Shown: positions 2,775 through 51,184 of the stretch, piece after piece
How the letters are laid out: every line of letters starts with the position of its first letter
How positions within the stretch are numbered: the first letter of the stretch is position 1
DNA from: an uncultured Gammaproteobacteria bacterium
GTDB taxonomy: Bacteria > Patescibacteriota > Patescibacteriia > UBA11705 > DATKZF01
Assembly (NCBI GenBank): GCA_964411255.1
Contig: CAYPKD010000007.1
Span: 13,344-77,343 of the forward strand
Reading direction: 5' to 3'
DNA length: 64,000 nt
Position numbers and translations under genes: made by a program
The notes under the pieces: generated by a model
Told to the model about the DNA's origin: nothing
What the model saw: the letters and a program-made list of their open reading frames with translations, nothing else
Databases searched by the model: none

Positions 2775-3536
2775 TTATACCCATTGTGCAGTCGCTAAAA
2801 TTGCGATTAAACAAACTGCACTTACTATTACAAAATTAATAATCTTTTTATTATTTAAATTCCCTAACAAAAAGTACCGAGACAACCCTGTCATCAGATA
2901 AAAGGCTACGGTCAAGATCAGAGCATTGATAAAAAAACTGGTTGGCAAATAATAAATCGCACTAAAAAGTTCGACCAACACAACAGCAATTGTAAAAACG
3001 AAAACATTGCTTTCCCTGAATTTTATTTTATTCACCCAAAACAGTTGATATGACAAAAGCATACAAACAGCCAGTACTGGAACAACCAAATATATTATTT
3101 TTACCTTTATAAAAATTATTAAGGCGTATATAAATGCGAAAAAAACAAAACAAACTATTAAATTCAAATACCATGAAAAATTTTCCAAAGAATACGGCTG
3201 ATATCTTTTCGGATAAAATTTGTAGTCTAATATTCTTCCTAAATATATAAATAGAAAAATGCTTACTGCGGCGGCAAACACATGATAGAACAAATTATTT
3301 TCAACAAACAGTACAAACGCTATGCAAGAACAAACATAAATCAAAGGACTGATTAAAAAACTAAAAAATTCGATATTTATTTTTTTTCTGGTAAATGACC
3401 ACAAAGTTAAAATCACCAAAACAACAACTATTGGTGAAATTATCCAGAGCCACTTCTCTTTATATATTAAAATTTCAAATGTTAGTAATAAAGAAAGCGG
3501 GGTCAAAAATTGCAGTAATTTGTTTAACAAAAACAT
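2775..3536 (-). CDS. polytopic integral membrane protein, hypothetical
   Basis: About 8 predicted TM helices; its stop abuts the HtrA start, suggesting an operon. Confidence 0.5.
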   Translation of the reverse strand: MFLLNKLLQFLTPLSLLLTFEILIYKEKWLWIISPIVVVLVILTLWSFTRKKINIEFFSFLISPLIYVCSCIAFVLFVENNLFYHVFAAAVSIFLFIYLGRILDYKFYPKRYQPYSLENFSWYLNLIVCFVFFAFIYALIIFIKVKIIYLVVPVLAVCMLLSYQLFWVNKIKFRESNVFVFTIAVVLVELFSAIYYLPTSFFINALILTVAFYLMTGLSRYFLLGNLNNKKIINFVIVSAVCLIAILATAQWV

Positions 3537-4843: not shown

Positions 4844-5587
4844 GTGACCCTTGCTGAACTTTTCGAATGGTATAATGTAGGCTACTTTGGAGCCTTTTCT
4901 TTAGCTGTGCTTTTTTTAATTTTAGCAATCATGGGCGTTGGTGAACATGATACTGACGCAGATGTAGATCATGACCTTGAGCTTGATCATGACATAGATC
5001 ATGATCTTGAACTCGATCATAATGTTGATCATGATGTTGATCATGATGTTGATCATGATATTGAAGGGCATGTAGAAAGTGCTGGTCTTGGCCATGCTCT
5101 GATGTCTTTGATTGGCATTGGAAAATGTCCGCTTTCAATCATAATCATGAGCTTTCTGTTACTGTACACCTTAATCGGCATTGGTTCCAATATGATCTTA
5201 AAACATATTCTGTTTGAGCCTGTAATTTTTGGATCAATATCCTATATCGGCGCAGCCATTGCTGGTTTCTTTTTAACCGGTCTTTTGGCCAGAGGCATTG
5301 GTAAACTTTTGCCCACAAAAGAAACTTACATTCAAGGCAAAAAAGGCCTGCTTGGTAAAATCGGCGAAGCAGTATATGATTTCACAAAACCTGAAGGCTT
5401 CATTCAGGTGATTGACGACAACCAAACTCTTCATGAAGTAAGAGCCAGAAATACCTCTGGCAAAGAAATTAAAAGAGGACAAAAAGTTTTAGTTTATCAG
5501 TATGACAGAGAAAACGAAATTTATATCATTGATGAACTACCACCAGAACTAGCCTCGTTTGAAAAAACGGAGAGGGGGCCGATGTGA
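4844..5587 (+). CDS. NfeD-like membrane protein with C-terminal OB-fold and an N-terminal His/Asp repeat insert
   Basis: GTG start with AGGAGG RBS; TM helices plus C-terminal beta-rich OB domain; 4-nt overlap with the downstream flotillin gene, which is the usual NfeD-SPFH pairing. Confidence 0.7.
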   Translation: MTLAELFEWYNVGYFGAFSLAVLFLILAIMGVGEHDTDADVDHDLELDHDIDHDLELDHNVDHDVDHDVDHDIEGHVESAGLGHALMSLIGIGKCPLSIIIMSFLLLYTLIGIGSNMILKHILFEPVIFGSISYIGAAIAGFFLTGLLARGIGKLLPTKETYIQGKKGLLGKIGEAVYDFTKPEGFIQVIDDNQTLHEVRARNTSGKEIKRGQKVLVYQYDRENEIYIIDELPPELASFEKTERGPM

Positions 5588-7677
5588 TCGGATTCATTCT
5601 TTGGTTCTTAGTTTCAATCTCTTTTATTGCTCTACCTTTTATTCTACCAGCTTTTACAGCAATTGAATTTTCAGGATCAACTCAAATGATTTTAATGGTT
5701 GTTGGAATTGCATCTCTGCTGGCTTTGGTAATTTTGGTAGTAATTACCAAGCTTTATCAAAAGACAAGCGCAAATGAAGCCCTGGTCCGAACAGGCATGG
5801 GCGGTAAAAAGGTTGTTCTTGACGGTGGAATCCTTTATATTCCTGTCCTACATAAAATTCTACGTATCAATCTGGAAACAATGCGGCTTGATGTTAAGAG
5901 AGACGGCAAAGATGCGCTGATCACCAGTGACTCTTTGCGAGCCAATGTAGCCAGTCAATTCTATATTAAAGTAAAGGCAGAAGACACAGATGTTACAAAT
6001 GCATCCAGGTCTTTAGGTGAAAAGTCAGTTGAGCCTAATGCGGTAAAAGAACTTGTTTTTGAAAAATTGGTTTCAGCTCTTCGTACTGTAGCTGCTAAAT
6101 CTACGCTTTTCGAGCTTAATAGTGAGAGAGAAAGATTTAGTGAAGATGTAAAGGTGCAGGTAGAAAAAGAACTTACGCACAATGGTCTGACTCTTGAGTC
6201 TGTTACCATTTCAGAACTTGACCAGGCTGATGTTAGTCAAATGAGAAAAGATAATGTTTTTGATGCTAATGGTTTGAAGCGTGTGGCTGAAATTACTCAA
6301 GCCGCACTTGCTGATACTAATGAATTAGAGCGAGATGCAGAAAAGCAAATTGCTGCCAAAGACGTTGAAACGAAAAAAAGAATTCTTAGTCTTGAGCTTG
6401 AACAGCGGCAGGCAGAAGCTGAGCAGCGCCGTGATGTAGCTAATGCTCAGGCAGAATCTGATCGTCTAGCTGCTGAATTTAAAATTGAGCAGGACCAGAA
6501 AGTTTCTGAACGTGACGTAGAAAAAGAACGGGCAGTCAAGGCTGCTCAAATTGAAGCAAATCAAAAACTGGTTTTAACTGAACGGGAAAAAGAACTTGCT
6601 GAGGTTGAAAAAGCCAAGGCGATTGAAACTGCTAATCGTGAAAAGCAGGCAGCAATCATTAAAGCTGAAGAAAAAAAGCAGGTAGCTGATGTTCAGCGCG
6701 AAAAAGCTGTTGAGGTTGCTAGCCGCGACCAGCAAATCGCTATTGCTCAAAAAGAAGAAGAGAGAGCCAAAGCTGAAGCCCAGCGCCTGTCTGCTGAAGC
6801 AGAACGGGAAACTGAGGCTCAGGGTGTAAAAACAGTTGAAGAAGTAAAAACTGCTGAGCGTGACAAGCAAAAGCAGGTTATTAAAGCTCAGGCTGAAGCT
6901 GAAACACGCTATGTTGAAAAACAACGTGATGCTGATGCTCAGGCTTATGAACTTAAAGCTCTGGCTGAAGGGAAGAAAGAAGCTGCTGATGCAGATGCTT
7001 TTGCCAAGACCAGAGCTGCAGAAGCTGATAAAGAAGCGGCTGAGAAGCGTGCTCTTGGTGAACAGGCTGAACAAATGGTCCCGGTCCATGTTGCTCAAAA
7101 GCAGGTTGAAGTTGAGCGTGCCAAGGCCAAGATTGAAGTCGATGTTGCTGAAAAGCAGGTCGAAGTCGATCGCCAGGCTGTTGAAGTTCAGGATGCCCGG
7201 GTGGCTGTTGAACGAAAAGATCTGGAAAACAGAGAAAAATTCGGACGAGCAGCTTTGGACTTTGAACTTGAAAAGGTTCGAATCTCCAGGTCTGCTGAAG
7301 TCAGTATTGAAACTGCCAGAGCAATGGCTACATTCCTGCATAAGGCAGATATCACCGTCTTCGGAGATCCAGGCACTATGGCAAGCATGCATGAAAAGTT
7401 CATGGGATCAATGGGTATGTCAACTGGACTTGAAGGTTTCTTTGCTGGGTTGAAAAAAGACAGCAATGGTAATGGTCAGGCAAAAGCATTGGTAGACAAA
7501 ATTGTCGGGTCAGCTACTGGATTGGTAGATGGTTTGGCTGAATTTTTGAAAAAAGAACGCGGGATGAAACCCAAGGAAGCAGGTGAAATGGCTGAACAAA
7601 TTGCTGACCACCTGAAAAGTATGGGATCACCTACTACTCCTGTAGTTGATCCACCTCCAACTCCTGCAAAACACTAA
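5584..7677 (+). CDS. flotillin-like SPFH/band-7 domain protein (YqiK family) with long EA-rich coiled coil
   Basis: N-terminal TM, SPFH domain, about 300-aa Glu/Ala/Lys/Gln coiled coil; translationally coupled to the NfeD gene. Confidence 0.8.
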   Translation: MIGFILWFLVSISFIALPFILPAFTAIEFSGSTQMILMVVGIASLLALVILVVITKLYQKTSANEALVRTGMGGKKVVLDGGILYIPVLHKILRINLETMRLDVKRDGKDALITSDSLRANVASQFYIKVKAEDTDVTNASRSLGEKSVEPNAVKELVFEKLVSALRTVAAKSTLFELNSERERFSEDVKVQVEKELTHNGLTLESVTISELDQADVSQMRKDNVFDANGLKRVAEITQAALADTNELERDAEKQIAAKDVETKKRILSLELEQRQAEAEQRRDVANAQAESDRLAAEFKIEQDQKVSERDVEKERAVKAAQIEANQKLVLTEREKELAEVEKAKAIETANREKQAAIIKAEEKKQVADVQREKAVEVASRDQQIAIAQKEEERAKAEAQRLSAEAERETEAQGVKTVEEVKTAERDKQKQVIKAQAEAETRYVEKQRDADAQAYELKALAEGKKEAADADAFAKTRAAEADKEAAEKRALGEQAEQMVPVHVAQKQVEVERAKAKIEVDVAEKQVEVDRQAVEVQDARVAVERKDLENREKFGRAALDFELEKVRISRSAEVSIETARAMATFLHKADITVFGDPGTMASMHEKFMGSMGMSTGLEGFFAGLKKDSNGNGQAKALVDKIVGSATGLVDGLAEFLKKERGMKPKEAGEMAEQIADHLKSMGSPTTPVVDPPPTPAKH

Positions 7678-8352: not shown

Positions 8353-8805
8353 ATGAAAACGATTATAAACAAACAAGCAAGATTTGATTATGAGATCCTG
8401 GATAAATTCGAGGCTGGATTAGTATTAACAGGACCAGAAGTAAAATCTGTAAAAAATGGACAAATTAACCTAAAGGGATCATATGTAACTGTAAAACATG
8501 AACCAAAATCTGAAATTTATTTAATAAATGCACATATTTCAAAATACAAACCTGCAGGAGAGCAGCCAAAATATGAACCAACACGCTCAAGAAAATTGCT
8601 TTTGCATAAGAAGGAAATCAATAAATTATTGGGTATACTGCAGCAAAAAGGCTTGACATTAGCACCACTTCGGGTGTATACTAAGCACAATCGCATTAAA
8701 TTGGAATTTGGAGTTGGCAGAGGTAAAAAGAAATTTGAAAAAAAGGAATCAATGAAAAAAAGAGATACAAAACGCCAGATTCAAAGAGCGATGAAGCAAC
8801 ATTAA
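8353..8805 (+). CDS. smpB: SsrA-binding protein SmpB
   Basis: 150-aa SmpB-like sequence with basic C-tail; its cognate tmRNA gene lies immediately downstream. Confidence 0.9.
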   Translation: MKTIINKQARFDYEILDKFEAGLVLTGPEVKSVKNGQINLKGSYVTVKHEPKSEIYLINAHISKYKPAGEQPKYEPTRSRKLLLHKKEINKLLGILQQKGLTLAPLRVYTKHNRIKLEFGVGRGKKKFEKKESMKKRDTKRQIQRAMKQH

Positions 8806-8885: not shown

Positions 8886-9269
8886 GGGGATGATCGGCTT
8901 CGATGGGAATCAAAAATTATAAATGTGCGAATATGAGCTGCTAAATGCTCATTAAAACTTTGGCAATCAAATAAGTGCTAAAAATGTACTAGCAAAAGTA
9001 AAGAGCGCATTTGCTGCTCCAGCTTTTGCACCTGTTGTTGCTTAATAGCATACAACCGCTTATCTGCTGACACTCGATAGGTAGTATAAGCGCCATTATC
9101 GAGATAGGCTGTCTGGTGCCAGACTGGCAGTTGAAATTAACTTGGCTTTAGCTTATTAGGATTTTGTTTGTTTCTACCTTCTATGCTGAACTTATAAACA
9201 AACTACTTTTCGTAGAAGCATTTATAGTTTAATTTCCAGACGCGGGTTCAATTCCCGCCATCTCCACCA
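8886..9269 (+). ncRNA. ssrA: tmRNA (SsrA)
   Basis: 5' GGGGATGATCGGCTTCGATGGG pairs with 3' CATCTCC-ACCA to form an acceptor stem with a G3-U70 wobble; T-arm GCGGGTTCAATTCCCGC; internal tag ORF ends GCT TAA TAG; located right after smpB. Confidence 0.85.
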
Positions 9270-34923: not shown

Positions 34924-35054
34924 ACTTTAATTTCATCTTATTCTAAAATCTTTAATAAATCAATATAAAAATACCAGTGATGTTGGTGATTTTATAGTTG
35001 AGGTTTCGTTTGCTATAGCTTTTAATTTAAAACATCTTTACGTCAATAGTATCG

Positions 35055-35181
35055 GGGGTCTGGGGGGCTGATTGCCCCCTGAGCGATCTTGGAACTCAAT
35101 CATCACTTCGCATTTGAAGCCTCCCAGCGGTTTTTGGTTACTTTTTGGTGTCAAAAAGTAACTTGGCGCAAGCCAACATTG
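35055..35181 (+). repeat. about 130-nt conserved intergenic element, copy 1
   Basis: GGGGTCTGGGGGGCTGATTGCCC...CACTTCGCATTTGAAGCC...TACTTTTTGG-N4-CAAAAAGTAACTTGGCGCAAGCC...AACATTG; shares more than 80% identity with the copy at 47029. Confidence 0.65.
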
Positions 35182-45847: not shown

Positions 45848-46528
45848 ATGCCACGTTCTAAACGTTATCAAAATTTATTAAAAAAAATCGATAAGGAATC
45901 AGCATATCCTTTCGAACAAGCAATTAAGCTTATTAAAGAAACTTCAACCACTAAATTCGATTCTGGTATTGAAGTTCATGTTCGTTTAGGTATAGATCCA
46001 AAAAAAGGCGATCAGCAAGTCCGCGGAACTGTTGTCTTGCCGCATGGCATTGGCAAGACACAAAAAGTTGCTGTTTTTGCTGAAGGAGATAAAGCAAAGG
46101 AAGCTAAAGAGGCTAAAGCAGATTTTGTTTATAATGAAGAAGATATTGCTGATATTAAAAAAACTGGAAAAATTGCATTTGATATTGCAATTGCTCCGCC
46201 AGAAATGATGAAAAAACTTGCGCCAGTAGCAAAAGTCTTAGGTCAAAAAGGCCTAATGCCAAGTCCAAAAAACGAAACTGTAACGCCAAATATTAAAAAA
46301 ACTGTTACTGAATTAAAAGCTGGAAAAATTGCATTTAAAAATGATGATACTGCAAATCTTCATCAATTAATTGGCAAAGCTTCTTATGATGATAAAAAAT
46401 TACTGGAAAATTATAACACCTTAATGAAAGCACTGAAAGACTCAAAACCAGATGGAGTAAAAGGCACATTTATCAAAACCGTTTATTTGACATCCAGTAT
46501 GGGGCCAAGCGTAAAAGTAGAATTATAA
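45848..46528 (+). CDS. rplA: 50S ribosomal protein L1
   Basis: Canonical L1 sequence. Confidence 0.95.
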   Translation: MPRSKRYQNLLKKIDKESAYPFEQAIKLIKETSTTKFDSGIEVHVRLGIDPKKGDQQVRGTVVLPHGIGKTQKVAVFAEGDKAKEAKEAKADFVYNEEDIADIKKTGKIAFDIAIAPPEMMKKLAPVAKVLGQKGLMPSPKNETVTPNIKKTVTELKAGKIAFKNDDTANLHQLIGKASYDDKKLLENYNTLMKALKDSKPDGVKGTFIKTVYLTSSMGPSVKVEL

Positions 46529-46549
46529 AAAGAAAAAATATAAATTAAA

Positions 46550-46583
46550 ATAGTTGTCTGGTGTAGACAACTATTTTTTTTTA
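46550..46583. terminator. bidirectional intrinsic terminator after rplA
   Basis: 10-bp stem atagttgtct/agacaactat followed by a T9 run and preceded by an A-run. Confidence 0.7.
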
Positions 46584-46894
46584 GGGGTCCAATGAAGTTT
46601 CAAAGCCTCAATATCATTGAGAAAAAATCTGGCTGAGCGAATAAGATCCTCTGATACCTCAACTTTTTTCTTTTCCACAGATCTCCATCCCCTGCCGACA
46701 AATCCCAGTGCAACGTCAAATTTATCATTACTTCTAAAAATAAATAAAATTTTATTGATTTGACTATCCTTAACAATATATCCTTCAACCTTATCAATTC
46801 CTTCAAGCCGTTCATGAACCTCGCTGGATTTATCTTTTGCTCTTATCAATTTTACATAATATCCTATATTTTTCTTTTCATTACCAGCAGCCAT
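46571..46894 (-). CDS. hypothetical protein
   Basis: 107-aa ORF with RBS; first gene of the small-gene island. Confidence 0.45.
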   Translation of the reverse strand: MAAGNEKKNIGYYVKLIRAKDKSSEVHERLEGIDKVEGYIVKDSQINKILFIFRSNDKFDVALGFVGRGWRSVEKKKVEVSEDLIRSARFFLNDIEALKLHWTPKKK

Positions 46895-47028
46895 TGAAAT
46901 CCTCCTTTTTCATCAATTAAAATTAGCATAAACAAATAATTGTGTCAATATCTGTAATATCTGATAAAAGTATAGACAAAATATTTTTTCGTAATTTATT
47001 TCAGGACATATTTTCATTTATAGCAACT

Positions 47029-47181
47029 GGGGTCTGGGGGGCTGATTGCCCATAACAAGAAAGTTAAACATAATTGACACTTCGCATTTGAAGCCCCCCA
47101 ATGGTTTTTGCCTACTTTTTGGCGCCAAAAAGTAACTTGGCGCAAGCCCAGAACCGTATGGTTCTGGGCAAGCCAACATTG
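47029..47181 (+). repeat. conserved intergenic element, copy 2 (with 25-nt hairpin insertion)
   Basis: Collinear with the copy at 35055-35181; the extra cccagaaccgtatggttctggg hairpin is inserted before AACATTG. Confidence 0.65.
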
Positions 47182-47312
47182 CAAGGACTTATTAGTTTTG
47201 TCAATCCTAATAAAATAATATATTTGTAATCCCCTGATAAAAGTACTTTCAAAACCCTTATTCGTAATATGGTCTTGCAAGGCCCTTTTGCTTTTGTCAG
47301 TTTTGACTCCAA

Positions 47313-47341
47313 TAAAAAACTGCAATGAATGTCATTGCAGT
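47313..47341 (-). terminator. cassette 1 terminator
   Basis: actgcaatga/tcattgcagt stem followed by a U6 run on the minus strand, directly after the stop. Confidence 0.65.
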
Positions 47342-47343
47342 AG

Positions 47344-47553
47344 TTATGCAGCGATTGAAACCGCTGATACTTTTGCCAGAGCTATTGCTTCTAGCGCTTT
47401 CCTATGAATTTCACTTCCTGGATTAGCTGTATGAGCAATTTCTGCCCATTCTTCATCAGTCAAATTGCTAAAAAATGAAGAATCCAGCCTGTGCCCAAAA
47501 AGTTTTACTGTAGTACTTATACCAAAAATTCTTCTAGCATTTTCAATGGTCAT
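47344..47553 (-). CDS. cassette small protein 1 (HEAT-like W-x-EIA repeat, C-terminal Ala-Ala)
   Basis: AAGGAGGA RBS; EEWAEIAHTANPGSEIHRKALEAIA repeat; ends ...SIAA. Confidence 0.5.
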   Translation of the reverse strand: MTIENARRIFGISTTVKLFGHRLDSSFFSNLTDEEWAEIAHTANPGSEIHRKALEAIALAKVSAVSIAA

Positions 47554-47623
47554 TTAATCCTCCTTATTCAGAATTTTCTGGCTTTAAAAAAATAAAAAAC
47601 TCTTTTCGAGTCTTTCTATAATA

Positions 47624-47652
47624 ATTATATCAAATATACAGGCTCATGTCAA
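47624..47652 (-). promoter_or_regulatory. cassette 1 promoter (TTGACA-17-TATAAT, minus strand)
   Basis: Consensus hexamers; followed by the leader hairpin GACUC-gaaaa-GAGUU plus U-tract. Confidence 0.6.
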
Positions 47653-47718
47653 GCATTTGTACACATTTATAACCCTGAATTGCAAAACCCTTTAATTTTG
47701 GCAGCTTTGAGATGAAAT

Positions 47719-47747
47719 AAAAAAGCTGCAATGAATGTCATTACAGC
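47719..47747 (-). terminator. cassette 2 terminator
   Basis: gctgcaatga/tcattacagc stem plus U-run. Confidence 0.6.
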
Positions 47748-48107
47748 TTAAGCAGCTATTGCCTTGCTTTGGCTCGTATCAACTTTTGCCTTGCTTCGGC
47801 TCATTTTCTGCAAACGTCTTAAGTACTTAGAAACAAGTCTCCAATAACGCATTGAGTATTCATCATTGCCAGGCGGACATGATATCATAATACCATTTAT
47901 CGCCTTGGCCAGTAAAAAACTGTTACCGATTTGATAAGCATTTTTAGCCATTTCAGCCCACTTTGAAACATGGACTGCAGCCATTGCTTCTCTTGAATCC
48001 ACAGGGATATCAACTATTCGGCTATCAGTTTTAATTCTTACTGTATCTCTGCGCCTGCGCTGAGGCTTTTTAGCAGAAATATTTTTAGGACAAACCTCAA
48101 AAGTCAC
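47748..48107 (-). CDS. cassette small protein 2 (basic; KWAEMA motif; C-terminal Ala-Ala)
   Basis: GTG start with AAGGAG RBS downstream of the promoter (the track ORF start at 48200 lies inside the promoter); ends ...AIAA. Confidence 0.5.
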   Translation of the reverse strand: MTFEVCPKNISAKKPQRRRRDTVRIKTDSRIVDIPVDSREAMAAVHVSKWAEMAKNAYQIGNSFLLAKAINGIMISCPPGNDEYSMRYWRLVSKYLRRLQKMSRSKAKVDTSQSKAIAA

Positions 48108-48172
48108 AAAGTAACTCCTTTCCAAGTAGCTTTTAAAACGAAAAAAGCCCGTGAACTGAGCTTCTATAAACA

Positions 48173-48200
48173 TTATAGCAAATAAAATAAAATTTGTCAA
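48173..48200 (-). promoter_or_regulatory. cassette 2 promoter (TTGACA-16-TATAAT, minus strand)
   Basis: Followed by the leader hairpin AGCUC-aguuca-CGGGCU plus UUUUUUCGUUUU. Confidence 0.6.
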
Positions 48201-48254
48201 GTATTTTTATCAACATGCTTGAATAAAATTGTTGTTCTATCCTCACCTTTATAT

Positions 48255-48284
48255 TAAAAAAGCTGCAAATATTTGATTTGCAGC
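48255..48284 (-). terminator. cassette 3 terminator
   Basis: gctgcaaat/atttgcagc 9-bp stem plus U6 run, directly after the stop. Confidence 0.7.
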
Positions 48285-48638
48285 CTATGCAGCCATACGA
48301 TTGGAAAAAAGCCCTCTAAGGGCCTGCATATGTTTTGGTTCACATGCACGCATTGTCACTTCTTTCACAGCTCTTCTTCGAATTGGACTTTCTGGAGCAG
48401 CACATTCAGCTATTTCCAGCCATTCTGAAAAACTATCTGCAAGAATTGTCAGTTGTTCCAGGGCCCTTGCTTTGATTGGACTATCTGGAGCAGCGCATCC
48501 AGCAATTTCTTTCCATTGGGAAAAAGTTAATCTGTCAAAGAATTCCTCAGAGAGGCTTGATGCACAAATTAGTACAGCAAAACCTATTCCGTAGCGCTTA
48601 AAATAGTAATAGAAGTTTTTTTCCGGTTCAAAGCTCAT
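48285..48638 (-). CDS. cassette small protein 3 (two HEAT-like W-x-EIA repeats; C-terminal Ala-Ala)
   Basis: AAGGAGG RBS and ATG at 48638 (MSFEPEKN...); internal 75-nt tandem duplication; ends ...RMAA. Confidence 0.5.
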   Translation of the reverse strand: MSFEPEKNFYYYFKRYGIGFAVLICASSLSEEFFDRLTFSQWKEIAGCAAPDSPIKARALEQLTILADSFSEWLEIAECAAPESPIRRRAVKEVTMRACEPKHMQALRGLFSNRMAA

Positions 48639-48710
48639 TTTTACCTCCTTGGATATGAGGTTTGTGTCTTTAAAAAACACAAAAAGCCCTTGAACTGAGC
48701 TTCTGTAAAC

Positions 48711-48739
48711 ATTATAGCAAATTAAATGCAATTTGTCAA
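48711..48739 (-). promoter_or_regulatory. cassette 3 promoter (TTGACA-17-TATAAT, minus strand)
   Basis: Consensus; the same conserved leader follows. Confidence 0.6.
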
Positions 48740-48794
48740 ATATTCTTATTAATATTTTTGAATAAAATTGTTGTTCTGATTCAATTAATTTATT

Positions 48795-48823
48795 AAAAAA
48801 GCTGCAAAAATTTGATTTGCAGC
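48795..48823 (-). terminator. cassette 4 terminator
   Basis: gctgcaaa/tttgcagc stem plus U6 run. Confidence 0.65.
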
Positions 48824-49087
48824 TTATGCAGCTTGTGCATTCCAGTCATTTAGCCTTTTCAGTATTATTCGTATTTTGGACCAAGTTTCTTTGTCTATTG
48901 ACCCTTTTATATGAACTAAGTCACTGGCTGCCTGCTGAACTTCTTTTTTATTTTGGGAATTTAGACCAGTTTTAATCCATTTCTCAATCTTATTATTATT
49001 ATTTTCCTGTACTTGCTGTAGCTTTACTGGCCTTAGCCTAGGTTTACTACTTCTGCGAGGCAAAAAAGTACCTAAACGCGCAACCAT
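48824..49087 (-). CDS. cassette small protein 4 (basic N-terminus; C-terminal Ala-Ala)
   Basis: GGAAGGAG RBS; ends ...AQAA; shares promoter, leader and terminator architecture with cassettes 1-3. Confidence 0.5.
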   Translation of the reverse strand: MVARLGTFLPRRSSKPRLRPVKLQQVQENNNNKIEKWIKTGLNSQNKKEVQQAASDLVHIKGSIDKETWSKIRIILKRLNDWNAQAA

Positions 49088-49143
49088 TGCTTTCTCCTTC
49101 CCATTTAAAAAGAAAAAAGCCCGTGAACTGAGCTTCTGTAACT

Positions 49144-49172
49144 ATTGTATCAAATATTTGTTCATTTGTCAA
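49144..49172 (-). promoter_or_regulatory. cassette 4 promoter (TTGACA-17-TACAAT, minus strand)
   Basis: Near-consensus; the conserved leader follows. Confidence 0.6.
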
Positions 49173-49297
49173 GTAAAATTTCACATACAATATAAATAAT
49201 AAAGCAATCACCAGCTTTTCCACTTCCCTGCAATAACAAGATTTGATAAAATAGTTGTACTTATTAGGAGGGTTTTGAAAAAAATAATAACAATTTT

Positions 49298-51184
49298 ATG
49301 GAAAATGAAAAAAATATAATGCAAAGACCTTCCTGGGACCAATACTTTTTAAAATTAGCAATGCTTGTTGCAGAACGATCAACCTGCAGGCGGCATAATG
49401 TTGGTGCTATAATTGTAAAAAATAAACACGTTTTATCAACTGGCTATAATGGCGCTCCTGCTAAAACAAAAGACTGCCTTGAGCTTGGTTGTTTACGAGA
49501 TGAGTTAAAAATTCCTTCAGGCACGCAGCAGCAGGTCTGCCGTGCAGTGCATGCTGAACAAAATGCAATAATTCAGGCAGCTTATCACGGAATAAATCTT
49601 GAGGGGGCAACAATGTATTGTACGCACACGCCCTGTATTATTTGCGCAAAAATGATAGTTAATGCTGGTATAAAACAAATAATTTCATACCGCGCTTATA
49701 ATGATGAGGACTTTATCAGATTATTCTTAGAGGCAGGAATAAAATTTGAAAAGCATGAAAAACCAGATGCCCAAATCACAGAATTAGATCGGGTTCAACT
49801 TTATGACACAAAACCAAAAAATGAAAGTGAAACAGAAAAAACTGAACAGCCTCCAGAGAGACAACAAGAGATGAAAAAATCAGACAGTATGGCCGATGTT
49901 TATATATATGATCAGTATAACCCAGAAGACAATGCAATGATGCAGGCTCTATATTCTCGAAGCCCGCAAAGCGTAACAGAACATGTGAAAAAAGTTGAAC
50001 AAACCGGATCAGGCAAATTTATGGAAAAATTTTATGTTGGCTATGGCCATCAGAGTATTGCAGATTGCGGCAGTACAACAATATTTACAGAACAGGTCAG
50101 CACTTTGGCTGACAAAGCGATTCAGGACTGGCCTTTATACAGCGGGCAAGAAACCAGCACTCGCTATGTAGACATGTCAAAGCAACCAATTGTTGATCCA
50201 GTGAAAACGCCTGAGTCAAAACAAATTTTAGATGCCTGGATGGACTTTTATGTAAAAAGCCAGAATAAAGTCAATCAACATATTAAAAGTCTTTATCCCA
50301 AAAAACCTGATGAAAAAGAAGGTGTCTATAACAAGGCTGTAGAAGCCAGGACATTTGACATTATGCGTGGCTTTTTGCCAGCTGGAATTACCACACAGCT
50401 AAGCTGGCATACAAATCTTCGTCAGGCTTGGGATAAATTAGCTTTGCTTCGTTATAATCCCCTGCCTGAAACACGGGAAATAGCAGAAAATATGATTACC
50501 AGGCTAAGAGAAAAATATCCAAACAGCTTTTGCCACGAGGAATATAAAGATCAGGAAGGTTTTCGAAAATCATCAACACAAAAATATAATTTCTATAATC
50601 CGCAATTTGCCAGTTCTGATTTTAAGATGTCCACCTCAATTGATCCTGAAAAATTATCACAGTATCAGGATATAATTGATTCACGTCCGCAAAAAACAAA
50701 CCTGCCGCACTTTTTAACTGAACTGGGATTAATTACATTTGATTTTATTTTAGACTTTGGATCATTTCGAGATGTTCAAAGGCACAGAAATGGTGTTTGC
50801 CGAATGCCACTACTAACTACTAATTTTGGATTTAATGAGTGGTATCTGAGCCAGCTGCCAAATGATATCAGGCAGGAAGCTGAGCAATTAATTGCTGATC
50901 AAAAAATAAAAATAGCAAATTTGCCAACCGTTGCAGAAATCAAACAATATTATATTTCCTTAGGATTTAATATGCCTTGCCGGATAACTTATGGCCTGCC
51001 AGCTACAATTTATGTAATTGAACTTCGATCAGGCAAGCCAGTTCATCCGACTTTAAGAAAAATTGCGCACAAAATGCATTATGCTCTGCTTGAGAAATTC
51101 CCAAATCTAGTACTCCACTCTGATTTGGAAAAAAGCGACTGGGATATTCGGCGCGGCTTGCAAAGTATTACAGAAAAAAAATAA
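49298..51184 (+). CDS. dCMP deaminase (ComEB-type) fused to a ThyX-like (flavin-dependent thymidylate synthase-like) domain
   Basis: N-terminal CDA zinc motifs HAEQNAI...PCIICAKM; the roughly 430-aa C-terminal region has ThyX-like SGQETSTRY and QRHRNG motifs. Confidence 0.6.
   Translation: MENEKNIMQRPSWDQYFLKLAMLVAERSTCRRHNVGAIIVKNKHVLSTGYNGAPAKTKDCLELGCLRDELKIPSGTQQQVCRAVHAEQNAIIQAAYHGINLEGATMYCTHTPCIICAKMIVNAGIKQIISYRAYNDEDFIRLFLEAGIKFEKHEKPDAQITELDRVQLYDTKPKNESETEKTEQPPERQQEMKKSDSMADVYIYDQYNPEDNAMMQALYSRSPQSVTEHVKKVEQTGSGKFMEKFYVGYGHQSIADCGSTTIFTEQVSTLADKAIQDWPLYSGQETSTRYVDMSKQPIVDPVKTPESKQILDAWMDFYVKSQNKVNQHIKSLYPKKPDEKEGVYNKAVEARTFDIMRGFLPAGITTQLSWHTNLRQAWDKLALLRYNPLPETREIAENMITRLREKYPNSFCHEEYKDQEGFRKSSTQKYNFYNPQFASSDFKMSTSIDPEKLSQYQDIIDSRPQKTNLPHFLTELGLITFDFILDFGSFRDVQRHRNGVCRMPLLTTNFGFNEWYLSQLPNDIRQEAEQLIADQKIKIANLPTVAEIKQYYISLGFNMPCRITYGLPATIYVIELRSGKPVHPTLRKIAHKMHYALLEKFPNLVLHSDLEKSDWDIRRGLQSITEKK

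Follow-up and report, generated by a model that had tools for sequence, protein, structure and literature searches.

The 64-kb window (the whole stretch of DNA analysed, 64,000 nucleotides of contig CAYPKD010000007.1) carries five small genes on the minus strand, bracketed by rplA (plus strand, ending at 46528) and a dCMP-deaminase/ThyX fusion gene (dcd-thyX, plus strand, starting at 49298). From the reading of positions 46300-49500, their order of transcription is c1, c2, c3, c4 and g5. The locus is a lineage-specific islet of small-protein genes in a Falkowbacteria-like genome of the Candidate Phyla Radiation (CPR/Patescibacteria), and four of its five independently transcribed genes are built on one common expression chassis. 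Each of these four monocistronic cassettes, c1-c4, which together span 47319-49172 (minus strand), has a near-consensus promoter, a hairpin in its leader, a Shine-Dalgarno site, an open reading frame (ORF) ending in Ala-Ala, and an intrinsic terminator. An earlier reading of the same DNA (the original prediction) had assigned to 46571-49200 four consecutive minus-strand small genes of 69-119 amino acids (aa); c1-c4 are present as described (87, 117, 119 and 69 aa), but five genes lie within that range, and the fifth, g5, lacks the shared modules. The claim that the cassettes form a set with shared 5' and 3' modules, beyond what ordinary annotation explains, proved to be real, and a nucleotide alignment of the cassettes matches their flanking modules but not their coding cores.

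Two relatives carrying the array are used for comparison throughout. The diverged strain L134/L003 shares 83-90% DNA identity with the window, with synonymous divergence (dS) of ~0.8 in rplA and thyX, and a sibling lineage is represented by the 3.4-kb contig L013.

Expression modules of the four cassettes

The near-consensus promoter that had been noted for every cassette was found at all four, with complete hexamer matches at c2-c4 and a single mismatch at c1 (Table 1). Sites with a 12/12 match occur five times in the 64 kb, and three of the five are those of c2, c3 and c4. The c1 promoter, spacer included, is 100% conserved in the diverged strain. The box AGAACAACAATTTTATTCAA upstream of the c2 promoter recurs at 48219-48238 for c3, has a variant upstream of c1, and is conserved in L134; a 104-nt repeat family covers the leader hairpin, the promoter and this box.

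Table 1. Positions of the features of the islet within the window
Feature	Position	Strand	Basis or remark
Whole lineage-specific insert	46529..49297	.	between rplA and dcd-thyX
c1 promoter, TTGACA-17-TACAAT, TG extension	49144..49172	-	11/12 consensus match
c1 leader hairpin, AGAAGCUC-AGUUCAC-GGGCUUUU, then U-run	49115..49137	-	-7.5 kcal/mol; first paired nt 7 nt after -10
c1 coding sequence (CDS), 87 aa, Arg-rich N-terminus, ends AQAA	48824..49087	-	ORF calls
c1 intrinsic terminator, stem begins inside stop codon	48799..48825	-	-16.5 kcal/mol including upstream mini-hairpin
Upstream box AGAACAACAATTTTATTCAA, ~20 nt upstream of c2 -35	48758..48777	-	repeat families and alignment
c2 promoter, TTGACA-17-TATAAT, TG extension	48711..48739	-	12/12
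c2 leader hairpin and U-run	48682..48704	-	terminator scan, folding, motif search
c2 CDS, 117 aa, N-terminal domain and two ~31-aa helical repeats, ends RMAA	48285..48638	-	repeat hidden Markov model (HMM)
c2 internal duplication, 88 nt, 93-nt period, 75% identity	48345..48525	-	copies 48345-48432 and 48438-48525
c2 intrinsic terminator abutting stop codon	48260..48286	-	terminator scan, folding
c3 promoter, TG extension	48172..48200	-	12/12
c3 leader hairpin and U-run	48143..48165	-	terminator scan, folding, motif search
c3 CDS, 119 aa, GTG start, Arg-rich N-terminal region, ends AIAA	47748..48107	-	ORF calls
c3 27-nt-period tandem duplicate at 3' end	47753-47802	-	repeat search
c3 intrinsic terminator	47723..47749	-	-17.9 kcal/mol
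c4 promoter, TG extension	47624..47652	-	12/12
c4 leader hairpin, GAAAGACUC-GAAAA-GAGUUUUUU, and U-run	47594..47616	-	-8.8 kcal/mol, z -3.1
c4 CDS, 69 aa, one repeat, ends SIAA	47344..47553	-	repeat HMM
c4 intrinsic terminator	47319..47341	-	terminator scan, folding
g5 CDS, 107 aa	46571..46894	-	within insert and conserved gene set

Downstream of the promoters of c1-c3, the motif AGAAGCTCAGTTCA(C/A)GGGCTTTT was observed three times against zero expected; the c4 hairpin is unlike these in sequence but of the same design, and in all four cassettes a U/A-rich spacer and then a strong Shine-Dalgarno site follow the hairpin. Transcription start sites were predicted from the position of the -10 hexamer. 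On this basis the hairpin begins 7-9 nt past the hexamer, at ~+1 to +3, in 12 of 12 leaders from three genomes, with 0-2 unpaired nucleotides ahead of it, so that all 12 place a stem-loop within the ~0-3 nt of the 5' end that defines a 5'-terminal stabiliser. The hairpin and U-tract had originally been located at +8 to +30; the hairpin is there, but it starts nearer to the 5' end. Its predicted free energy lies between -7.3 and -9.9 kcal/mol, with loops mostly of 7 nt (4-9 nt overall), compared with -12.5 to -14.7 kcal/mol for the cassette terminators and a median of -11.6 kcal/mol for the candidate gene-end terminators of the window. The leader hairpins are thus the weakest terminator-like structures of the locus, and those of c1-c3, with 8 pairs, 3 G-C pairs and a 7-nt loop, pass an intrinsic-terminator consensus scan.

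The pattern of substitution in these hairpins indicates on which strand they are constrained. Between the window and L134, the c1 stem is kept while the loop is altered at four of seven positions. U.G pairs of the stem have become U-A pairs in two L013 copies, and one G-C pair has become A-U in c4. Since G.U pairs work in RNA on this strand only, the constraint is taken to act on the sense transcript. Loops differ from copy to copy (AGUUCAC, AGAUUCA, AGAUCUG, AAAAGUUGC, UUCA and GAAAA). No leader-like hairpin was present after the promoters of two more distant genes of the c2/c4 protein family (L016 and L017), which makes the expression chassis clade-specific. As a probe for further copies the leader motif, with its 17 specified bases, was too unspecific in the collection scans, which gave 23 viral and at least 120 metagenome matches, nearly all by chance; a filter requiring a promoter upstream left L051 (the same contig as L015) and L134 as the only real ones. 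Pairing of GCUUUU with a downstream AAAAGC was considered as an anti-structure and rejected, being available in some copies only and located downstream of the hairpin, hence not co-transcriptional.

At the other end of each cassette stands a terminator with a GCTG(C/T)AA...TTGCAGC stem that begins at the stop codon. The shared stop-proximal terminators of the original prediction were recovered at four of four genes and fall into two subtypes, those of c1 and c2 being 95% identical and those of c3 and c4 93% identical; the c1 terminator is 100% conserved in L134. Terminators abutting stop codons are common elsewhere in the window, and such an arrangement is a recognised signature of uncoupled 'runaway' transcription (PMC7858274). 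The gene g5 has a weaker promoter, a different terminator and a Lys-rich end, and carries neither the leader hairpin nor Ala-Ala.

The last two codons of all four cassettes are GCT GC(A/T), as had been reported, and encode Ala-Ala (NAQAA in c1, NRMAA in c2, KAIAA in c3, VSIAA in c4), compared with one of the ~69 other ORFs of the window. The four ends are not independent events, since the cassettes share a homologous 3' module. In the L013 contig the orthologs end in AA, AA, VA, VA and IC, with differing codons (GCA, GCT, GCC, GTT): the c3-like gene ends in GAA (GCT GCC), and the c4-like genes in AVA (GTT GCC) and QVA (GTT GCA). The AQAA end of c1 is invariant in three genomes, and its orthologs are only 37% identical overall. 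As the (A/V)-A class is kept while codons and terminator sequence change, conservation appears to operate at the level of the residues, and this comparison favours selection of the Ala-Ala ends in the protein.

Insertion of the islet and its variation among relatives

The insert is 2.77 kb in size, with a GC content of 34.5% (35.4% for the window). By the ThyX fusion protein, the nearest references are Candidatus Falkowbacteria and other Patescibacteria metagenome-assembled genomes, at 59-67% amino-acid identity. Synteny is kept in two Falkowbacteria-like relatives (L009 and L011), in which secE-nusG-rplK-rplA is followed on the same strand, ~115-240 bp further on, by the deaminase gene of a dcd-thyX pair, and the 2.77-kb block is missing from both. 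Because these relatives join rplA to the deaminase gene without the block, we regard it as a lineage-specific insertion. A phage origin was considered and set aside, as g5 has no relatives in IMG/VR and the GC content of the insert is in line with that of the host. Rfam returned nothing relevant, either at the gathering threshold for the whole window or at E <= 10 for 46300-49500. Several ENA, JGI and Logan assemblies contain an identical locus.

Cassette number does vary among siblings, as had been suspected. The strain L134 keeps c1, c2, c3 and g5 and lacks 764 bp (window 46951-47715) holding c4 and a structured repeat element. The L013 contig contains at least seven tandem small genes, in the order g5-c2-c1-c3-c4-c4' followed by further genes, and the identities of the orthologs to their counterparts in the window are 50% for g5, 41% for c2, 43% over 54 aa for c1, 28% over 105 aa for c3, and 56% and 35% for the two c4-like proteins. 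Five of the L013 genes match the architecture of the window cassettes, with a TTGACA-17-TA(A/T)AAT promoter and a AGAAGCUC...G(G/A)GCUUUU hairpin at the transcript start. After the hairpin come a U-run and a ribosome-binding site, and a GCUG...CAGC terminator lies at the stop codon or overlaps it. The expression modules have therefore been retained in the sibling lineage despite a protein identity of 27-56%. The same contig also encodes (2988-3272) a 94-aa Cys-rich protein (CxxC...CxxC) that matches the phage family phrog_2834 (E 4e-6) and has its own promoter, without a leader hairpin.

Between the window and L134, the ratio of nonsynonymous to synonymous divergence (dN/dS) is 0.22 for c1, 0.076 for c2, 0.45 for c3 and 0.17 for g5, compared with 0.07 for rplA and 0.04 for thyX. 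By this measure c1, c2, c3 and g5 are real protein-coding genes under purifying selection. Promoters, hairpin stems, Shine-Dalgarno sites and terminators differ little or not at all between the two strains, and no change is seen in the last ~30 nt of c1 even though the dS of the c1 CDS is 0.74; judged from these alignments, the non-coding modules are at least as constrained as the coding sequence. The cassettes had been described as a diversifying family. The ratios (0.08-0.45), together with the presence of an ortholog of each gene in the sibling lineage, contradict this: number and order vary, and the content, as far as the compared sequences indicate, is a conserved set of distinct families. 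The dS is uneven along the array (c1 0.74, c2 0.31, c3 0.15, g5 0.86, flanks ~0.8), which suggests recent recombination or an extra constraint at the nucleotide level in c2-c3.

The small proteins

Several relationships among the five proteins were revealed by profile comparison. First, c4 is a paralog of the N-terminal half of c2 (38% identity over 50 aa, E 6e-10). A repeat HMM of 26 positions, built from 168 repeat units of the wider c2/c4 family, scored 33.6 and 26.9 bits on the two repeats of c2 and 23.9 bits on that of c4; on c1 and c3, its scores were no better than on 200 shuffles of the same sequences. Three of the proteins had been said to carry a repeat. Two copies in c2 and one in c4 stand, and that in c3 does not. 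The two repeats of c2 are encoded by its internal duplication, which is the feature originally listed as a 75-nt duplication in cassette 3; it measures 88 nt and lies in c2, and c3 has a separate duplicate of 27-nt period. Second, c1 and c3 both combine an Arg-rich N-terminus with a helical region bearing two conserved Trp. In hhalign comparisons, c1 against c3 gave E 0.001 at 21% probability, and the two against the c2/c4 family gave E 0.04 (c3) and 0.16, so that a distant relationship between c1 and c3 appears possible.

No significant family match was obtained with Pfam, NCBIfam, PHROGs or PADLOC for the five small proteins and their orthologs. At E <= 10, Pfam gave no family for c2, c3 or c4, with HEAT, HEAT_2 and HEAT_PBS unmatched; ten larger members of the c2/c4 family had no HEAT or TPR match, and the precomputed Pfam annotation was empty for the c2/c4-family proteins returned by the alignment search. 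The extent of the family depended on the method of search. A word-indexed protein search with c2 recovered only a 95%-identical strain variant, and the family surfaced in an exhaustive HMMER search, in which a profile of c2, the strain variant and c4 gave 82 matches at E <= 1e-3 among 1.84e9 representatives. These 82 representatives range from 69 to 787 aa; one is from Candidatus Paceibacterota and another lies in CPR-like synteny. Most members examined have an N-terminal GFGxAVVI..FFxxLTFxQW domain followed by tandem ~31-aa repeats, with the consensus TFEEWLEIYKRAPSGSELKKTALEKM and the pattern TFxxWxxhhxxAxxxSxhxxxAhxxh, and this definition describes c2 and c4 and excludes c1 and c3. These profiles place c2 and c4, as minimal members, in a family of ~31-aa alpha-helical-hairpin repeat proteins that lacks annotation.

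The AlphaFold2 model of c2 (predicted local distance difference test score 87) is all helical, with eight helices in stacked pairs, and the top Foldseek matches of this model in the PDB were designed or consensus TPR proteins (E 0.2-2). As a fold class, a HEAT/TPR-like alpha-solenoid is a fair description of the modelled protein. The HEAT/PBS-lyase membership suggested earlier is unsupported, given that the HMM check gave no Pfam match and that Foldseek gave generic TPR-like solenoids at E > 0.2. The c2/c4 family resembles TPR, HEAT and HEAT_PBS proteins in its tandem ~31-aa helix-turn-helix units, and it differs from them in the lack of a Pfam or NCBIfam match, in the fold-search E values, and in having an N-terminal domain and a repeat consensus of its own. 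For g5, the AlphaFold2 model consists of five strands and one helix, and a word-indexed search of 5.8e9 proteins returned only 5 clusters. Besides the c2/c4 family, the three small-protein families of the islet are clade-restricted and blank in standard annotation.

Possible roles of the chassis, and neighbouring features

We propose that the chassis serves to produce insulated and stable mRNAs, protected by a 5' hairpin, for small proteins that carry an Ala-Ala degron. To this model as a whole we assign a probability of about 0.5. The near-consensus extended -10 sigma-70 promoter of each cassette would provide strong constitutive transcription. The 5'-terminal hairpin would mainly shield the 5' end from pyrophosphohydrolase and 5'-dependent RNases, and the 3' hairpin would end transcription, insulate each unit and protect the 3' end. 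Together, promoter, 5' hairpin, spacer, Shine-Dalgarno site and terminator would give short, stable, insulated monocistronic mRNAs. The C-terminal (Ala/Val)-Ala would then act as a degron resembling the ssrA tag or Ala-tails, making these abundantly produced proteins short-lived. Stem-loops at the 5' terminus are classic mRNA stabilisers, and the RppH of B. subtilis needs at least 2 unpaired 5' nucleotides and prefers at least 3 (PMC3997798). The leaders resemble known stabilisers (E. coli ompA and papA; the B. subtilis aprE leader and ermC) in the 5'-end hairpin with 0-2 unpaired nucleotides and in the strong Shine-Dalgarno site on monocistronic mRNAs that are presumably highly expressed. Unlike these, the islet hairpin has a U-run, by which it also resembles a weak intrinsic terminator, and its stem sequence is common to non-homologous genes and conserved between lineages. 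Because the hairpin sits at the predicted transcript start in 12 of 12 leaders and is weaker than the terminators, we favour a stabiliser of the mRNA 5' end over an attenuator.

For the degron, the likeness is to the Ala-Ala-COO- end of sigma-AntA, the ssrA tag and the Ala-tails added by RqcH. All four cassettes match the ClpXP C-motif 1, in which Ala-Ala-COO- follows non-polar residues, and the residue ahead of Ala-Ala is M, I, I and Q, giving -MAA, -IAA, -IAA and -QAA. For sigma-AntA, it has been demonstrated that the native Ala-Ala at the C-terminus serves as a ClpXP degron (PMC7142297). From the comparison of these ends, we place the odds that the (A/V)-Ala end is an ssrA-like degron at roughly even. 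The tmRNA gene of the host lies within the window (8886-9269) and encodes the tag AKNVLAKVKSAFAAPAFAPVVA, ending in ...APVVA rather than in the common Leu-Ala-Ala; it is adjoined by a 150-aa ORF (8353-8805) that is probably smpB. The VVA end of the tag resembles the VA ends of the L013 orthologs.

Several observations weigh against the proposed model. The leader hairpins pass a generic scan for terminators, with 5-8 U among the 12 nt behind them, and partial termination at this U-run is plausible. Conservation of the stem sequence (AGAAGCUC/GGGCUU) is stricter than protection by a generic hairpin would require, which hints at a specific binding factor. With regard to the C-terminus, one ortholog, the c2-like protein of L013, ends in AIC; GCUGCA before the stop codon repeats the first bases of the terminator stem, so that the Ala-Ala codons could in part be a by-product at the nucleotide level; and the host tmRNA tag ends in VVA and not in LAA. 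In an E. coli screen, Ala-Ala was necessary but not sufficient for degradation by ClpXP, with preceding hydrophobic residues helping (PMC10862746). Clp, Lon and FtsH were not among the ten ORFs checked in the 64-kb window.

The similarity of the codons to the terminator leads to an account in which Ala-Ala has no role in the protein, GCUGCA being a duplicate of the terminator 5' arm (GCUGCAA) copied together with the 3' module. The 3' modules are clearly homologous, AAGCUGCA-U-AAGCUGCA forms a direct tandem repeat in c1, with similar arrangements in c2-c4, and synonymous changes are absent from the final ~30 nt of c1, against a gene-wide dS of 0.74. Such copying would not by itself explain orthologs that retain (A/V)-A with altered codons (GCT GCC, GTT GCC, GTT GCA) and an altered terminator sequence, nor an AQAA end that is invariant among such divergent c1 proteins. 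We consider this account on balance unlikely.

The U-run, in turn, invites a reading in terms of promoter-proximal attenuation, in which the leader hairpin and U-run would form an intrinsic terminator that halts most transcripts at ~+30 until it is opened or bypassed by a factor acting in trans. That factor could be the Arg-rich c1 or c3, acting as lambda N does on boxB; the Ala-Ala degron would govern the level of the factor, and the array would be switched on as a group. The passage of the hairpins through the terminator scan, with U-rich tails, is consistent with this reading, as are a stem sequence conserved across paralogs and lineages beyond the needs of pairing, the Arg-rich N-termini of c1, c3 and their L013 orthologs, and an element common to four cassettes in the manner of a regulon. 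The c4 hairpin has in addition a 5-nt GAAAA loop, which we take to match the boxB loop of lambda nutR. Systems of attenuation and antitermination (lambda N with nut/boxB, Q with qut, HK022 put, LoaP) likewise have a hairpin near the promoter of each unit, and the islet similarly encodes small, Arg-rich and possibly unstable proteins. Unlike these systems, however, the islet has hairpins that are themselves terminator-like, with no RNA upstream that could serve as antiterminator or sensor. An attenuator needs no position at +1 to +3, yet each of the 12 leaders has its hairpin there, and no other terminator-like structure of the locus is as weak as these hairpins. The freely varying loops argue against recognition of the boxB type, no boxA-like shared element was found between the leader hairpin and the Shine-Dalgarno site, and c1 and c3 have no homology to known antiterminators in Pfam, NCBIfam or PHROGs; likewise, no sequence relationship of the islet proteins to N, Q or LoaP was found. 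Measured against a lambda N/nut system, which combines boxA with a conserved boxB loop, the Arg-rich N-termini are the sole shared trait. Attenuation in general is thus rather unlikely, and its specific form as an N/nut-like switch timed by proteolysis, in which c1 or c3 would license read-through of a 5' hairpin that doubles as a terminator and so control c2 and c4, is improbable. If it were true, the cassettes of this CPR episymbiont would form a self-contained regulon without a described counterpart in cellular genomes.

Two further explanations look to the array rather than to its transcripts. The conserved flanks might mainly be sites of homology or recombination, the locus being a variable array of the integron type or one driven by gene conversion. 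Cassette number and order indeed differ among the window (c1-c2-c3-c4-g5), L134 and L013, the near-identical pairs of terminators suggest duplication or gene conversion, the uneven dS (0.15-0.86) fits recombination between strains, and assemblies often break at the array. Integron arrays are also alike in their tandem small ORFs, conserved boundaries and numbers that differ between strains. Nevertheless, integron cassettes are typically promoterless, whereas each unit of the islet has its own promoter (11-12/12) and terminator; neither an integrase or recombinase nor an attC-like site occurs in the insert, the inverted repeats are all terminators, and rplA and dcd-thyX border the islet. For the most part the content is conserved, each family having a vertically conserved ortholog under purifying selection, the flanks are standard transcription signals, which accounts for their conservation, and the c4 indel is not bounded by the shared modules and also takes in an unrelated structured repeat. 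We consider it hardly likely that recombination is the main function of the flanks. Alternatively, g5 might be an RNase toxin of the MazF/ToxN type, with the labile Ala-Ala proteins as continuously made antitoxins or modulators. The combination of strong synthesis and a degron is typical of antitoxins, and g5 accompanies the cassettes in both lineages with the array, a third lineage having yielded only a g5-like gene on a 902-bp contig. This explanation is very improbable, since Pfam, PADLOC and PHROG gave no matches, the genes are monocistronic rather than co-transcribed pairs, and g5 is under ordinary purifying selection and has no identifiable catalytic motif.

The pattern as a whole is non-random and under selection, and its components (promoter, 5' stem-loop, terminator, Ala-Ala end, solenoid repeat) all belong to known kinds of element. 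The unusual point is that they occur together so strictly, on small ORFs without homology to one another, in a CPR islet restricted to one clade. Gene expression in CPR/Patescibacteria has hardly been studied by experiment, and the locus offers a compact natural test set, in which unrelated small ORFs have been fitted with one and the same promoter, 5' hairpin, terminator and C-terminal dipeptide, a combination that selection has maintained among strains and in a sibling lineage. It could reveal how reduced genomes set the half-lives of mRNAs and proteins, and whether transcription is uncoupled from translation, and it leads to an unannotated helical-repeat family with 82 representative clusters. 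Should the hairpin prove to be a terminator under the control of a factor, or the Ala-Ala end to be a working degron, the islet would represent a new and simple design of regulation; otherwise, it would be a tidy example of strong, insulated expression units.

Other elements were observed at or near the islet. Between c4 and g5 lies a GC-rich structured element of ~150 nt (46996-47233, core 47005-47160). It has no match in Rfam, and its fold z-scores are -3.3 (minus strand) and -4.9 (plus strand). Another intergenic region (35021-35174) holds a second copy, which runs in the same orientation and shares 76.6% identity with the first. In the palindromic hairpin of the element, ACTTTTTGG(C/T)G(C/T)CAAAAAGT, the stem is kept and the loop changes. 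The element could be an undescribed small RNA or a repeat resembling miniature inverted-repeat transposable elements. It is flanked by 35-nt direct repeats (46961-46995 and 47234-47268, 77% identical, CTGATAAAAGTA...TTCGTAAT), which suggests that it arrived by insertion or duplication, and it is absent from L134 together with c4. Elsewhere in the window, a 697-aa ORF (5584-7677) has an N-terminal SPFH/Band-7 domain as the only domain detected, its other ~480 aa being unannotated.

On the upstream side of the array, dcd-thyX is a single 628-aa ORF (49298-51184) in which a dCMP deaminase is fused to a flavin-dependent thymidylate synthase (ThyX). The ORF belongs to a cluster of nucleotide-salvage genes, together with a P-loop kinase-like ORF (AAA_17/18) and the genes for dUTPase, thymidylate kinase and thymidine kinase. 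At the upstream edge of the array, a conserved non-coding motif, TTTTATCAAA...GGAAGTGGAAAAG, occurs in the window (~49205-49260, minus strand), in the strain variant L134 (~6100-6145) and in two sibling lineages (L013, 55-100; L165, 400-445). It occupies the divergent intergenic region beside a thymidylate-synthase gene (the dcd-thyX fusion in the window, a classical thyA in L165), and it may be the site of a common regulator or a thy promoter.

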